64,000 bases of DNA from a virus. A program made the position numbers and the translations under genes. This document shows positions 10,776 to 17,068 of the stretch, one piece after another (within the stretch, counting starts at the first letter, position 1; each line of letters starts with the position of its first letter). The notes beneath the pieces are model-generated. The model was not told the DNA's origin, ran no database searches, and saw only the letters and a list, made by a program, of their open reading frames with translations. The DNA is taken from IMG/VR virus record IMGVR_UViG_3300045988_074321, positions 1 to 64,000 of that record; one strand, 5' to 3'.

Positions 10776-11336
10776 ATGAAAAAGACAATTGAAATTGAAT
10801 GTCCAGATGGTTATAAACCCATCTATAATGCCGAAACTGGCAATGTTGAAATCGTTCCAGAAAACATTATGGGACGGATAAGAACCTATGAGGATGCTGT
10901 AAACTATCTAGGGTGTGTTACTAGAGATACTATTTACTACAATAGATCTGTAAATTCTCTAGCTAAGTTGCAGACAGTCTTGGATGCGCTAAATGAAGGT
11001 CACAAGTTCAATCTGTTAACTGGTACTATATGGTATCCCTGGGTTCGCTTCTTTAGAATGAAATCAGTTCCGAAGGATGCAGAAGTCATTGGTCACTTCC
11101 GTTATCAGGGCGAGAAATTCGCGTTGGTGGGCGGCGGCGCGTATAATGGCGGCCTTGCGGGTCTCGGCTTTTTCGATTCTATCTATGGCGTCGGCGGTGC
11201 CTATTCCTGTGTCGGGATGCTTGCGTGCAAATCTGAAGAGATTGCCAAATACGTATCAACCCAGTTTGGAAAGCTAGTGTTCGATGCTTGTTTTGCAAGA
11301 CATTTCAAGGGTGAAGAATTTGAATGGCTTGACTAA
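10776..11336 (+). CDS. hypothetical protein with GC-rich Gly-repeat segment
   Basis: ORF track; GGGAYNGGLAGLGFFDSIYGVGGAY encoded by an unusually GC-rich stretch 11100-11280. Confidence 0.5.
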   Translation: MKKTIEIECPDGYKPIYNAETGNVEIVPENIMGRIRTYEDAVNYLGCVTRDTIYYNRSVNSLAKLQTVLDALNEGHKFNLLTGTIWYPWVRFFRMKSVPKDAEVIGHFRYQGEKFALVGGGAYNGGLAGLGFFDSIYGVGGAYSCVGMLACKSEEIAKYVSTQFGKLVFDACFARHFKGEEFEWLD

Positions 11337-11814
11337 TGAAAAAGTTCCTTGTAATTATGCTTGCTTGCTCTGGATGAGCGTAGCAGCATTTTCTCAGATA
11401 ACTATATCTCAGGAAGATTATGATAAGTTACCCAATGAGACTAGAACTCAAATTGAGAAGATAACAACAGAGAAGGCTATAAAGGGTGAAATCAAGGAAG
11501 TTTCTGAGTATGCAAATCTCGGTAAGGAGATTGGAGTAGCCGTTAATGAAACTTTGAAGGCAGTTGAAGATTCGGCTATAAGAATATCTGAATCTAATCT
11601 AGGACAAACAGCGATAACTATTGTAGTATGGAAATTACTATATAAGGAGATAGCTGGAGTCGTAATAGGTATACTACTGCTAGGAATATCTCTATTTTTA
11701 CTAATAACTGGAAGAGGAAAACTATCTAAAGACGATGAAGATGCTGGCGGATGGATAAGTGTAGTCGGTGGCGCAGTATTCTTTATTTCTTCTATGATTT
11801 GTGTATTTGGCTGA
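11337..11814 (+). pseudogene. lipoprotein gene with apparent frameshift: signal peptide MKKFLVIMLACSG in one frame (11337..11378), mature part in +1 frame (track ORF 11284..11814)
   Basis: lipobox LAC in frame A ends at TGA; body continues in frame B from ~11374; indel or sequencing error near GCTTGCTTGCTC. Confidence 0.4.
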
Positions 11815-11910: not shown

Positions 11911-11999
11911 GGAAGGGTGGCAGAGTCAGGTTTAATGCAACGGTCTTGAAAACCGTCGGGCGGTAAAACGTCCCCAGGGTTCGAATCCCTGTCCTTCCG
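11911..11999 (+). tRNA. tRNA-Ser (TGA), type II
   Basis: acceptor ggaaggg/tccttcc, anticodon stem acggt/accgt, loop CTTGAAA, long variable arm, T-arm caggg-TTCGAAT-ccctg. Confidence 0.8.
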
Positions 12000-12008
12000 C
12001 AATTAACT

Positions 12009-12081
12009 ATAGGATTGGTGTTAACGGTTAGCACGTCGGTCTCCAAAATCGAAGGTAAGGGTTCGAATCCTTTATCCTATG
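12009..12081 (+). tRNA. tRNA-Trp (CCA)
   Basis: acceptor ataggat/atcctat, anticodon stem tcggt/atcga (G-U), loop CTCCAAA. Confidence 0.75.
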
Positions 12082-12104
12082 CAAATATCAATAACTAAAA
12101 ACTT

Positions 12105-12323
12105 ATGAAGAGAATTAGATTAATTTGTATGATGGCTGTTGTAGCAATAGTTACGGCAGTCTGTTGTTCGTTTACTTCTAGGGAAGACCGAAATCATTTT
12201 TCGGTTATAAAGGTATATACCGACCCTAATAGTCACATGAATGTCTATAGAGTCTCCGTTCCTGGGAGAGTGTATTACGTACTTCATAATACGACTCAAG
12301 GAGGGTTATGTAAATTACAATGA
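12105..12323 (+). CDS. small lipoprotein-like protein
   Basis: N-terminal signal MKRIRLICMMAVVAIVTAVCC. Confidence 0.45.
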   Translation: MKRIRLICMMAVVAIVTAVCCSFTSREDRNHFSVIKVYTDPNSHMNVYRVSVPGRVYYVLHNTTQGGLCKLQ

Positions 12324-12847
12324 GCGAAACTTATTATCTCTTAGCAGCCATTTCGTATGGCATTTTTATTGTTCAGTTCATACTCTCTTGGTTTGGTGGC
12401 GACACTGACTTAGATGTAGATTTAGATGGAGAATTGGACATGGATGTGAGTGATATTGTCTCTTTTAAAGGACTAGTACATTTTGTAATGGGAGCAAGTG
12501 GATGGCTTTGTATTAAGCATTCCGTTTCTCATTCTATAGAATGGTACGATTATTTAATCGCATTAATATGCGGTATTCTTTTTGTGGTTATACTTTACTA
12601 CTTATATAAACTTTGTTTAAAACTCCAACATCAAGTTATTCCTGAAAAGGGTGAAGCCTTAGTTGGGAGAATTGGAACAATCACTATCCCTAATGATATT
12701 TCTGGTGGTAGTTCTGTTATCTTAGTTGAGATAAATGGAATGCTTCAAGAATTGTCAGCTTATGCTGAAGAAGAGCATAAGACGTATAAAAACGGGGACA
12801 AAGTGAGAATTTCAAAATTTGAGAATGGAAAGTATTATTTTAACTAA
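12320..12847 (+). CDS. NfeD-like membrane protein (YqiJ-like partner of SPFH proteins)
   Basis: N-terminal TM helices plus C-terminal OB-fold-like segment GRIGTITIPNDISGGSSVILVEINGM; immediately upstream of flotillin gene; ATGA overlap. Confidence 0.55.
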   Translation: MSETYYLLAAISYGIFIVQFILSWFGGDTDLDVDLDGELDMDVSDIVSFKGLVHFVMGASGWLCIKHSVSHSIEWYDYLIALICGILFVVILYYLYKLCLKLQHQVIPEKGEALVGRIGTITIPNDISGGSSVILVEINGMLQELSAYAEEEHKTYKNGDKVRISKFENGKYYFN

Positions 12848-12862
12848 AAAGAATTTTTAAAG

Positions 12863-14836
12863 ATGACAACAGAAACTCTTATTGTAGCGGGTGTTATTGT
12901 ACTCTTAGTAGTTGTAACTTTTATCGGACTTTTGTCTCGGTATCGTAAGTGTGCTAGTGATGAAATCCTGGTAGTATTTGGTAAGGCAGGAAAGAAGAAG
13001 GTAGTTAACGAGAAGACTGGTAAAACGGAGGAAGTTATACTGCCGTCTAAAATCATCCACGGCGGAGGTACATTCGTAATGCCTGTCATTCAAGACTGGG
13101 CTAAAATGTCCTTGAAACCTATTCAGATTCAGGTAATGGTAGAGGGAGTATCCAGCCAAATGATTAAGGTTAGGATTCCTGTGACATTAACTACTGGTAT
13201 AGGAACCGATCAAGTACTAATGCAAAACGCTGCAAGCAGATTCTTAACAGCTAAAACTTCTGAAATCTCAGACCAAATCAAGGATATTCTCATTGGTGAA
13301 GTGAGAAGCTTGATGGCAACAATGACGATTGAGGAAATAAATGCTGATAGAATCAAATTTATCGGCAAGGCAAAAGAGAATATTGAAACTGAGTTGAACA
13401 AGGTAGGTTTCAGTATTATCAATATTAACAACGCTGATATCTCGGACGATGCAAACTATATCAAGAATCTTGGTCAGAAAGCTGCAACTAAAGCTCTTGC
13501 TCAGGCACAGGCTGACATTGCAGAAGAGAAGAAGAAAGGAGATATTCAGATTGCAGAAACCAACAAACAGCGTGAGATTGCCGTAGCCGATGCTGAAAAG
13601 GAAAGAGAAACTACAGTTGCTCAAACTAAGCAAGAACAGGAAGTAAAGGTTGCTGAGATTAATCAGGAGAAAGCTATTCGCTTGGCAGAAGCAGAAAAGA
13701 ACAAACAAGCTGGTATCGCTGAACAGAAGGCGGAACAAGAAGCTAGTATTGCTCGTGCAAACACTCAAGCAGAATCAGCTAAAGCTGAAGCTGAATCTCA
13801 GAGAATAGCTAATGTAGCGAAATCCGCTTCAGAGGCTGCTTCTAAGAAAGCTGCTGCTGACGCAGAAGCAGAAGCTAATGTAGCTAAAGCTAAGGCAGAA
13901 GCAGATTCTAAGAAAGCTGAAGCTGAAGCTCTGAAGCAAACTCGTATTGCTCAAGCTAAGCAAAAGCAGGAAGCAGACACTCAGAAAGCAATTAATGAGC
14001 AAGAAGCTGCTACTGCAGAGTATGAGTCTCAGAAGAGAATTAAGGCTGCAGAAGCTGACAAGCAAGCTGGAGTAGCTGAGCAGAAAGCAACTATTGAAGT
14101 ATCAAAGGCAAAAGGAGAAGCTGCACAGGCACAAGCTGAAGCAGAAAAGGTAGCTGGTACTTCTAAAGTAGAAGCAAGAATGGCTGTAGCCAAAACAGAA
14201 CAAGAACGCCAGATTGAGGTTAACGAAGCTGCTGCTAAGGCAGAGGAAGCAAAACTTCAAGCTGAAATGATTGTTCCTGCTCAGAAACAAAAAGAGAGAG
14301 TAACTATTGAAGCAGAAGCAATTAAAGCCAAAGCGGTATTGGAAGCAGAAGCAGAAGCTGCAAAGATTTTGAAAGAAGCAGAAGCGAAAGCTGACGCTAC
14401 TAAACTGCAGTTAGAAGCAGAGGCAGAAGGTACTCGCAAGAAATTGCTTGCTGAAGCTGAAGGTAAGAGAGCATCATTGATGGCAGAAGCTGATAAGGTT
14501 CAAGCTATCGAAATGGCTCCAGCCTTGGCAGTTGAGAAGATGATTGAATCTGGCTTGACTCCTGAAATGGTGGTTCAGTACAAGACAGTTGACCAGTTGA
14601 CAGGTATTGCAGAAGCATCTGCTCAGATGTTTGAACACGTTCACCTTGGACAGGTTACTGTTTATGGTAACGAGAATACCGCTGGTAACTTCATGGCTAA
14701 AACTGCTGAGAACTTGAATCCTGCGTTCGACTTGCTTCGCTCTATACCTTTCGCTGATACACTGAAAAGTGTTCTCGGCAAGAAAGAGTTGGAGGAGAAG
14801 AAAGCTGAAACAACTGAGTTTGAAGAAGTGAAGTAA
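12863..14836 (+). CDS. flotillin-like SPFH/band-7 protein (YqiK-like) with long Ala/Glu/Lys-rich coiled coil
   Basis: N-terminal TM, SPFH domain, ~300 aa of EA repeats, C-terminal conserved tail; minus-strand ORFs inside are low-complexity artefacts. Confidence 0.8.
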   Translation: MTTETLIVAGVIVLLVVVTFIGLLSRYRKCASDEILVVFGKAGKKKVVNEKTGKTEEVILPSKIIHGGGTFVMPVIQDWAKMSLKPIQIQVMVEGVSSQMIKVRIPVTLTTGIGTDQVLMQNAASRFLTAKTSEISDQIKDILIGEVRSLMATMTIEEINADRIKFIGKAKENIETELNKVGFSIININNADISDDANYIKNLGQKAATKALAQAQADIAEEKKKGDIQIAETNKQREIAVADAEKERETTVAQTKQEQEVKVAEINQEKAIRLAEAEKNKQAGIAEQKAEQEASIARANTQAESAKAEAESQRIANVAKSASEAASKKAAADAEAEANVAKAKAEADSKKAEAEALKQTRIAQAKQKQEADTQKAINEQEAATAEYESQKRIKAAEADKQAGVAEQKATIEVSKAKGEAAQAQAEAEKVAGTSKVEARMAVAKTEQERQIEVNEAAAKAEEAKLQAEMIVPAQKQKERVTIEAEAIKAKAVLEAEAEAAKILKEAEAKADATKLQLEAEAEGTRKKLLAEAEGKRASLMAEADKVQAIEMAPALAVEKMIESGLTPEMVVQYKTVDQLTGIAEASAQMFEHVHLGQVTVYGNENTAGNFMAKTAENLNPAFDLLRSIPFADTLKSVLGKKELEEKKAETTEFEEVK

Positions 14837-14842
14837 TTCACA

Positions 14843-14893
14843 GCGAAGGGGCTTTACAATTTCAATAGTAAAGTATAACAAAAGCCCCTTCGC
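14843..14893 (+). terminator. 13-bp stem hairpin GCGAAGGGGCTTT...AAAGCCCCTTCGC after flotillin gene
   Basis: perfect 13-bp inverted repeat directly after TAA. Confidence 0.6.
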
Positions 14894-14898
14894 AATTT

Positions 14899-14983
14899 GG
14901 AGGTATGGGTGAGTGGCTTAAACCACCGTCCTGCTAAGACGGAGGGCCTTCGGGTCCCGCTGGTTCGAATCCAGCTGCCTCCG
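14899..14983 (+). tRNA. tRNA-Ser (GCT), type II
   Basis: acceptor ggaggta/tgcctcc, anticodon stem ccgtc/gacgg, loop CTGCTAA, long variable arm, T-arm gctgg-TTCGAAT-ccagc. Confidence 0.8.
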
Positions 14984-14999
14984 CTTAATAAAATTTGTT

Positions 15000-16369: not shown

Positions 16370-16446
16370 AGGGACGTATCCCCTCAAGCTTATACCTTGT
16401 AGAAAGGGTAGTTGGTCGCACGTGGGTTCAAACCCCACCGTCCCTA
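16370..16446 (+). tRNA. tRNA-like gene with perfect acceptor (agggacg/cgtccct) and T-arm (gtggg-TTCAAAC-cccac) but aberrant D/anticodon arms (9-10 nt anticodon loop TTGTAGAAAG)
   Basis: hand-folding; anticodon not assignable. Confidence 0.4.
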
Positions 16447-16519
16447 CAACTTCTGGATTGAATTTTTAATTTTGCACCAAAACATTTGGTATTATGATTA
16501 TTTTCATATATATTTGTAT

Positions 16520-17068
16520 ATGAATTACAATGATTATAATACACAGAAGTTAAGAGGTTTAAAGCGCAAATTAGAGCTAGTAAAATCTCGTGGTGGTAAA
16601 TGTGAACTATGCGGCTATGATAGAAACATAGCTGTTCTAGAATTTCACCATATTAATCCAGATGAGAAAGAGTTTCAGTTAGATATGAGACATTTATCTA
16701 ATACAAGTCTAGAAAGGCTTAAAGAGGAAGCAGATAAATGTCAACTTCTATGCGCTAATTGTCATAGAGAAGTACATAACCCTCACTTGGGAATGGACGA
16801 AGTTGAAGATTTAGTTAATACTGAAGCTAAAGATAAGACGTCTTTTGAAAATATGACTGGGTCTGTATGCCCAGTATGCGGCAAAAGATTTCCTAAATCT
16901 AAGGGTAAGATATACTGTTCTAAGGAATGCAGAGATGCTGATAAACATTATCCTTCTCTAGAAGAAGTAAATGAGCAGTACGAAATACTTAAGAATTGGG
17001 AGAAAGTTGCTCAGCATTTTGGATTAACTCGCAGAGTTATTCAAGGAATAAGAAAGAAAGACTCATAA
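16520..17068 (+). CDS. HNH homing endonuclease
   Basis: ELCGYDRNIAVLEFHHINPDEKE ... LLCANCHREVH; first ATG at 16520 (track ORF starts inside tRNA-like sequence). Confidence 0.8.
   Translation: MNYNDYNTQKLRGLKRKLELVKSRGGKCELCGYDRNIAVLEFHHINPDEKEFQLDMRHLSNTSLERLKEEADKCQLLCANCHREVHNPHLGMDEVEDLVNTEAKDKTSFENMTGSVCPVCGKRFPKSKGKIYCSKECRDADKHYPSLEEVNEQYEILKNWEKVAQHFGLTRRVIQGIRKKDS

Follow-up and report, generated by a model that had tools for sequence, protein, structure and literature searches.

SPFH-NfeD systems and a phage counterpart

In the Escherichia coli QmcA-YbbJ complex, 26 heterodimers of an SPFH protein and an NfeD protein make up a cage that extends into the cytoplasm (PMC13086221, PMC12478178). 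NfeD has been proposed to promote SPFH oligomerization, and NfeD partners are exclusive to prokaryotes (PMC13086221). Human flotillin assembles as a right-handed, single-layer barrel of parallel helices, each 186 residues long and devoid of heptads, and its authors hold that helix length sets the size of the complex (PMC11260169). The function of bacterial flotillin and NfeD proteins is still unclear and knock-outs are often near-silent; Staphylococcus aureus FloA-NfeD stabilizes unfolded proteins under stress (PMC13086221), and a Bacillus subtilis SPFH protein ties PspA to the membrane (PMC8581546). Phage genome papers have recorded SPFH genes from 2006 onward but assign them no function (PMC1524935, PMC3220722, PMC13239085). 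Here, we analyze an NfeD-flotillin gene pair in viral DNA, on positions 1-64,000 of IMG/VR record IMGVR_UViG_3300045988_074321. This 64,000-nucleotide stretch is referred to as the window, and all coordinates refer to it unless another locus is named.

The locus contains three open reading frames (ORFs):

12105-12323, + strand: predicted small exported protein, 72 residues; a variable accessory gene outside the conserved pair
12320-12847, + strand: short NfeD-family membrane protein, 175 residues
12863-14836, + strand: flotillin, 657 residues

A preliminary description of this DNA had correctly placed three co-oriented genes here and its core reading, a phage-borne NfeD-flotillin pair, holds. 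It had also called the genes overlapping, which is true of the first and second (4 nt, ATGA), but the second and third are 15 nt apart.

The closest counterparts of the pair are chromosomal operons of Bacteroidota. A profile of the 175-residue protein matches the ORF directly upstream of the flotillin gene in ~78 of 80 Bacteroidota genome loci, with E values from 1e-46 to 1e-10, and because the same small protein precedes flotillin there, the phage pair is, on sequence kinship and synteny, a diverged copy of the native Bacteroidota NfeD-flotillin operon. Among the species-representative genomes scanned, the nearest cellular flotillins come from Bacteroides, Parabacteroides, Prevotella, and related genera, at 36-39% full-length identity. 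The operons of Bacteroides salyersiae, Bacteroides finegoldii, Parabacteroides faecis, and Prevotella (loci L052, L064, L056, and L059) have the same gene order and spacing, homologous NfeD proteins with an acidic DxDxD loop followed by SFKGL-HF, and flotillins that align with the phage protein over their full length. The phage copy differs from the Bacteroidales operons in its flotillin, whose helical wall is 41-85 residues longer (297-341 vs. 256-267) and whose N-terminal region is ~12 residues longer. Its neighbors, tRNA genes and small phage ORFs, also set it apart from the Bacteroidota operons. In neighbor-joining trees, the window clade is monophyletic and sister to Bacteroidales, and copies of the type found in the deposited phage csAssE-Sib lie nearer to Bacteroidaceae; there are hints that phages captured the pair more than once. 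We regard the homology, architecture, synteny, selection, and host-type origin of the pair as nearly certain.

Other described systems differ from the phage pair in several respects. NCBIfam FloT is the best model for the 657-residue protein (E 1.2e-40), but because the score of 140 bits is far under the equivalog cut-off of 700 bits, the protein is classed as a member of the flotillin family and not as an orthologue of FloT. This separates it from the B. subtilis YuaF (NfeD2)-FloT (YuaG) operon. The phage locus also has no counterpart of yuaI, the third gene of that operon. The E. coli QmcA-YbbJ cage (PDB 8z5g) is built from a stomatin-type SPFH protein with a short wall, and sequence identity is 12-14%. 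The label "YqiJ/YqiK-like", used in the preliminary description, proved imprecise. E. coli YqiJ-YqiK shares the overall logic of a membrane protein gene paired with a flotillin gene, but the nearest kin of the phage pair are in Bacteroidota and not in enterobacteria, and no YqiJ-specific Pfam family matched the 175-residue protein or any of 37 homologues at E <= 1. The sequence match to the eukaryotic flotillins 1 and 2 (PDB 9bq2, 9l3g) is significant over the SPFH domain and the first part of the wall helix (E ~1e-18), and in both the wall is rich in Ala and Glu and lacks heptads, in keeping with a right-handed helical barrel. However, the human wall helix has 186 residues vs. ~341 in the window flotillin, and the phage protein carries an N-terminal hydrophobic anchor rather than lipidation and has an NfeD partner.

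SPFH/Band 7 proteins also occur in other phages, namely in the PHROG family phrog_200 (annotated "lipoprotein"), in the T4-like phages 44RR, Aeh1, and RB43, in the Vi01-like phage PhiSH19, and in Vibrio phage KIT04. The T4-like and Vi01-like entries are listed as SPFH/Band 7 domain matches only, with no NfeD partner reported (the PhiSH19 protein has 263 residues), and the window flotillin matches phrog_200 weakly (E 6e-5). In KIT04, an unrelated phage (Demerecviridae; locus L047, 2680-2928), the flotillin is preceded by an 82-residue transmembrane protein with an acidic "TDLDD" segment and no OB domain, which may be a truncated NfeD-like partner.

Architecture of the flotillin and its NfeD-like partner

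The two proteins are divided as follows:

12863-12949, + strand: flotillin residues 1-29, hydrophobic N-terminal membrane anchor
13001-13531, + strand: flotillin residues 47-223, SPFH/Band 7 domain (Pfam)
13475-14497, + strand: flotillin residues ~205-545, helical wall, 11-residue-periodic and Ala/Glu-rich
14498-14833, + strand: flotillin residues 546-657, conserved C-terminal region
NfeD residues 4-24, 49-70, and 75-102, + strand: transmembrane helices TM1, TM2, and TM3 (model and hydrophobicity)
12395-12454, + strand: NfeD residues 26-45, acidic DxDxDG loop between TM1 and TM2
12653-12844, + strand: NfeD residues ~112-175, C-terminal OB-like β-barrel (model)

Pfam Band_7 (PF01145) covers residues 47-223 of the flotillin with E 2.1e-17 (64.2 bits vs. 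a cut-off of 23.6), and a sequence search of the PDB returns human flotillins 1 and 2 at E 1.9e-18 to 9e-17. The AlphaFold monomer is of low confidence (pLDDT, the predicted local distance difference test score, of 51.7; shallow alignment of sequences with identity >=73%) and was used for secondary structure only; it predicts helix over residues ~197-562, a region rich in Ala, Glu, Lys, and Gln. The transmembrane segment, SPFH domain, and long Glu/Ala-rich region noted in the preliminary description are thus all recovered, the last as a helix of ~340 residues. Together with the conserved C-terminus, this architecture aligns end to end with Bacteroidales flotillins. An identical protein, recorded on 206 contigs, bears the JGI label "flotillin".

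The 175-residue protein scores 13 bits against Pfam NfeD (PF01957; E 0.13), below the cut-off of 29.1, and four of its 38 close homologues give weak matches to this family. Membership rests on a two-step link: the profile of the protein (A1) matches a homologue from Epilithonimonas at E 3.8e-22, and this homologue passes the Pfam NfeD cut-off at 29.8 bits. In four other Bacteroidota homologues, the same C-terminal position matches Pfam NfeD with E values of 0.001-0.02. PDB sequence searches, with the protein itself and with its 38-sequence profile, returned no NfeD; no PHROGs family or NCBIfam model was matched, and ten distant members gathered in a profile search of 1.84 billion proteins yielded one weak NfeD match only. 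In the PDB, NfeD was found by fold comparison alone. The model generated from 38 homologues (pLDDT 79.5) has three transmembrane helices, leaves the acidic loop disordered, and ends in a five-strand barrel, in agreement with the NfeD-like OB-fold C-terminus proposed earlier. Foldseek ranks three NfeD structures at the top: YbbJ from QmcA-YbbJ (138 aligned columns), 3cp0, and 3wwv. In BFVD, a 99% identical protein bears the name "NfeD-like C-terminal domain-containing protein". With its modeled OB barrel, three transmembrane helices, and position directly beside an SPFH gene, the protein corresponds to the short form of NfeD, which has no ClpP-like protease domain.

The acidic loop between the first two transmembrane helices, GGDTDLDVDLDGELDMDVSD (12395-12454), holds the DxDxDG motif and is disordered in the model. 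The DxDxD run and the SFKGL-HF that follows it are common to phage and Bacteroidales homologues, and more distant members from Bacteroidota retain an acidic loop together with a related F(K/R)N(L/I)xxF motif. DxDxDG is a classical Ca2+-binding pattern, and Ca2+ binding by this loop is a possible function.

Conservation in crAss-like phages

The window belongs to a large crAss-like gut phage of ~187 kb, as judged from the relatives of its primase and NrdD, the contig sizes of related viruses, and its PHROG matches. The best annotated relatives of the two enzymes are from crAss-like phages (cr85_1, IAS virus, cr56_1, and Bacteroides crAss phages). Relatives of the flotillin are located on viral contigs of ~165-193 kb, shorter fragments aside, and a 100% identical copy is found on IMG/VR contig 3300007184_000001 (187,677 bp). 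Across the window, the larger ORFs screened against PHROGs match replication and nucleotide-metabolism genes. The hosts of this phage are likely Bacteroidales.

The NfeD and flotillin genes are adjacent in 44 of 45 close viral loci. A wider scan of IMG/VR returned at least 230 matching stretches; adjacency was counted in 80 of these and was found in every one, including lineages with flotillin identities of 56-58% and 38%. The phage csAssE-Sib has the same gene order, annotated as "transmembrane protein" followed by "flotillin family protein" (hhalign E 5e-28). The ratio of nonsynonymous to synonymous substitution (dN/dS) is ~0.05-0.3 overall, 0.05-0.23 for sequence pairs with unsaturated dS, and 0.06-0.21 for the flotillin. 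SPFH-NfeD pairs had been described as unusual in phages. This stands for deposited records, where flotillin-like genes match 8 of 50,697, but not for SPFH genes at large, which have a PHROG family of their own and T4-like and Vi01-like listings, nor for IMG/VR, given the number of stretches that carry the pair.

We also note that the module is mosaic among strains. In loci L001, L005, L009, L018, and L033, the NfeD is of a type that is 99-100% or 74-76% identical to that of the window and the flotillin is 97% or 89-91% identical; NfeD type, flotillin type, and presence of the 72-residue ORF assort independently. Between segments of the flotillin gene, dS differs up to ~50-fold, and the comparison with L001 gives 0.007-0.010 over the first 545 codons and 0.40 in the C-terminal part. 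This independent assortment and the dS contrast point to frequent recombination.

Length of the helical wall

Wall length was measured between aligned landmarks in the flotillins (loci L020-L126). In the cellular Bacteroidota sampled, the wall spans 212, 223, 234, 245, 256, or 267 residues; it has 289 residues in csAssE-Sib and 297, 308, 319, or 341 in the phage clade of the window. Within each series, cellular and phage, lengths step by multiples of 11. The window flotillin itself has an 11-residue hydrophobic periodicity (peak power 2.24 vs. a shuffle 95th percentile of 1.97), and its repeat reads roughly x-I/V-x-I/V-A-E-x-x-K-x-x. These steps would fit a right-handed helical barrel that is sized by the gain and loss of hendecads. 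Because the phage walls of 297-341 residues exceed both the cellular range of 212-267 and the human length of 186, we infer by analogy that the phage cage would be taller or larger than that of the host.

The upstream gene

The 72-residue protein is predicted to be a small exported protein, with a hydrophobic segment (residues 1-26) and a conserved mature part of ~40 residues, and to represent a variable accessory gene. A search of 5.8 billion proteins returned only 19 close homologues, PHROGs holds no family for it, and it occurs in ~11 of 45 related loci. The earlier assignment as a lipoprotein is not supported: the N-terminal segment, ...AIVTAVCCSF, fails the lipobox rule [LVI][ASTVI][GAS]C, as TAVC and AVCC have V or C at position -1, and three members of its family (P0367, P0371, and P0372) use a signal peptide that lacks Cys and ends in AFSQ. 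In sister genomes, the ORF is replaced by a non-homologous ORF of 74-76 residues with a canonical lipobox (LLFSC or LLYSC), and in more distant lineages the slot upstream of NfeD is occupied by unrelated genes. We therefore rejected a three-gene operon as the functional unit, since the pair is often found without the small ORF and the contents of its slot are exchanged; the conserved unit is two genes.

A 176-residue membrane protein encoded just ahead of the block (11284-11814) shares a related N-terminal signal and an "S(Q/R)ED" segment with the 72-residue protein, and some relatives (P0367, P0371, and P0372) fuse a signal peptide of the 176-residue type to the mature part of the 72-residue protein. 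They resemble paralogues, both small and exported, that undergo recombination. The listed ATG of the 176-residue ORF probably lies upstream of its real start.

Possible functions of the pair

The best explanation, at a probability of roughly 55%, is that a captured host operon has been kept as a membrane-maintenance SPFH cage. An ancestor of the ~170-190 kb crAss-like clade would have captured the pair from a host long ago, with purifying selection acting since. During infection, both proteins would be made and inserted in the host inner membrane, the flotillin through its N-terminal hydrophobic segment and the NfeD through its three transmembrane helices, such that the SPFH domain, helical region, and OB domain face the cytoplasm; this topology is derived from the positive-inside rule, judged by eye. 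Flotillin subunits would assemble into a cage of the SPFH type, walled by parallel helices that form a right-handed barrel, and NfeD, as the operon partner, would support cage assembly as in QmcA-YbbJ. The cage could then fence off or stabilize a patch of host membrane and thereby preserve integrity, fluidity, and protein quality control through a long infection, making the pair an auxiliary host-maintenance module. We put the chances at about even for when the genes are expressed, how the proteins are oriented, whether a cage forms, and whether the phage benefits.

Several points weigh against a maintenance cage. The nearly complete genome L036 (IMGVR_UViG_3300045988_058602, 185,891 bp; locus positions 5890-6060) has a ~770-nt deletion at a 9-nt microhomology, gctgccgtc. 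All of NfeD and the first ~56 flotillin codons with the membrane anchor are removed, and flotillin codon ~57 is joined in another frame to the small ORF with the lipobox. The deletion is either a natural knock-out or a minor variant, and the module is therefore dispensable at least sometimes. Bacterial flotillin mutants are often mild (PMC13086221), and any gain for the phage may be limited or depend on conditions. The flotillin monomer model is poor, so that cage formation and cage size are extrapolated from homologues, and the trees are rough neighbor-joining trees without support values.

The extended wall might serve a different purpose from topping up the flotillin of the host. Counted in hendecads, it has ~31 vs. 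~23 in Bacteroides, and the pair could form an oversized SPFH compartment of the phage's own in the Bacteroidales inner membrane, with a dedicated NfeD whose DxDxDG loop may bind Ca2+. Such a membrane organelle, specific to the virus, would sequester host membrane proteins such as proteases, defense effectors, or receptors, or would anchor phage processes. We consider this possible but doubtful. If true, no earlier case would be known of a virus that turns a flotillin cage into a tool of infection, and it would offer a natural handle on what bacterial flotillin-NfeD cages do.

Superinfection exclusion or competition between phages is unlikely. Here, the cage, perhaps with the upstream small exported protein, would block DNA injection or receptor use by later phages. 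All three products are membrane or envelope proteins, and the upstream slot swaps small exported or lipoprotein-type ORFs (the 72-residue ORF, those of 74-76 residues with LLFSC, and unrelated genes). Swappable cassettes for small exported proteins are typical of phage exclusion and moron loci. In addition, the SPFH gene of phage PhiSH19 adjoins an annotated superinfection exclusion gene (PMC3220722). On the other hand, the two conserved genes simply copy a host operon of the housekeeping kind, none of the three proteins matches a PADLOC defense model at E <= 0.01, and the small ORF is not kept along with the pair, which speaks against the three genes working together.

Control of a membrane protease or of lysis timing seems more unlikely still. 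The cage would sequester a host membrane protease or the phage's own holin, by analogy with HflK/C around FtsH (an enclosure cited in PMC12478178 and PMC13086221), and would thereby make phage proteins more stable or postpone lysis. The description of 3cp0 links the NfeD family to "regulation of membrane protease activity". However, no holin, endolysin, or protease gene was identified in the immediate neighbors screened with Pfam and PHROGs, the larger window ORFs screened are devoted to replication and nucleotide metabolism, and the NfeD is the 175-residue short form without the ClpP-like domain.

Counter-defense is improbable. A scaffold that reinforces or repairs the membrane against membrane-disrupting abortive-infection effectors would agree with the strong purifying selection on the pair across many phage lineages and with the ties of SPFH proteins and flotillins to envelope stress (the B. 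subtilis PspA link, PMC8581546; S. aureus FloA-NfeD, PMC13086221), but this proposal is purely inferential and none of the proteins matched a known anti-defense family.

Finally, the host-like genes, the inactivating deletion in L036, and the near-identical copies in two "bacterial" genome bins (L048 and L049) could raise the suspicion of an assembly or binning error that placed host DNA on the contig, or of a passenger in decay that does nothing for the phage. This is already largely refuted, and host contamination was rejected, by the location of the pair inside ~170-193 kb viral contigs and throughout the IMG/VR stretches, the identity of only 36-39% to any cellular flotillin found, dN/dS well below 1, the phage-type flanking genes with a crAss-like primase and NrdD, and the grouping of both bin copies with the phage clade.

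These two loci, 140-153 kb contigs binned as "Gastranaerophilales" and "Clostridium sp." metagenome-assembled genomes, encode flotillins that are 82-90% identical to that of the window phage and cluster with the phage clade in the tree. They look like phage contigs mis-binned into bacterial genomes.

Hairpin and tRNA surroundings

The block is embedded in an array of tRNA genes, of which the window carries 26, and ends in a hairpin:

11911-12082, + strand: tRNA-Ser(TGA) and tRNA-Trp(CCA), directly upstream of the block (ARAGORN; Rfam tRNA 52.7 and 57 bits)
14843-14893, + strand: hairpin with a 13-bp stem (14843-14855/14881-14893) and a 25-nt loop, 6 nt past the flotillin stop and 5 nt before tRNA-Ser
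14899-14984, + strand: tRNA-Ser(GCT), directly downstream of the block (ARAGORN; Rfam tRNA 55.8 bits)

The hairpin had been interpreted as a terminator. Its perfect 13-bp stem is confirmed and the fold is stable (dG, the folding free energy, -23.5 kcal/mol; z = -4.9; 0 of 200 shuffles equally stable), but it is not a canonical intrinsic terminator, which has a G+C-rich stem, a loop of 3-8 nt, and a 3′ T-run: the stem qualifies, but the loop has 25 nt, the tail is AATTTGG, and a terminator scan did not call it. Close relatives keep the hairpin, with a double compensatory change in L016 and L036 (GCGAAGG/CCTTCGC to GCAAAGG/CCTTTGC) and a G-U change in L007 and L035. In the majority of sampled lineages, a different stem-loop occupies this position, one of which is a classical terminator. 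Because of the compensatory changes and these alternative stem-loops, a structured 3′ end downstream of flotillin is under selection. The hairpin itself is likely a non-canonical 3′-end, terminator, or processing structure, and its role could be termination or 3′-end protection after tRNA processing. The stem sequence is not repeated elsewhere in the window. Within the loop (14856-14880), the motif TAGTAAAGTATAACAA is kept even in L020, despite a different stem sequence there. The loop may therefore carry a signal of its own, perhaps one for the nearby tRNA-Ser, which begins 5 nt past the stem.

An Rfam scan of the locus returned tRNAs alone, plus sub-threshold matches overlapping them. No canonical sigma-70 promoter stands out, as the number of matches is at the level expected from shuffles. 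Two tRNAs are of the suppressor type, with anticodons CTA (reading TAG; 1939-2011, - strand) and TTA (reading TAA; 5196-5266, + strand), which suggests that some of the phage genome is read with recoded stop codons; the genes for the 72-residue protein, NfeD, and flotillin remain intact under the standard code. Further downstream, the ORF at 16412-17068 has a Cys/His pattern like that of HNH endonucleases. With tblastn, five loci match most or much of it at 98-99% identity, and it is missing or fragmentary in the remaining related loci. This ORF probably encodes a mobile homing endonuclease that resides in the tRNA region.

Implications

The identification of the two proteins is not new, as JGI and UniProt-derived resources already name both correctly. 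Literature searches found no paper linking crAss-like phages with flotillin and returned nothing on csAssE-Sib. What is new here is the origin of the pair in a host operon, the two-gene unit, the breadth of its conservation and the selection on it, the lengthening of the wall in 11-residue steps, and the deletion and recombinant variants. The last of these, together with the different wall lengths, provide natural variants for comparison: recombinant NfeD/flotillin combinations and one deletion.

A lytic phage keeps a gene only if it is useful to infection. Several lineages of abundant crAss-like phages of the human gut keep the complete pair under strong purifying selection, with a lengthened wall, and a concrete, selectable membrane function is therefore indicated. 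The pair adds a membrane-scaffold module to the host-derived auxiliary genes of large gut phages.

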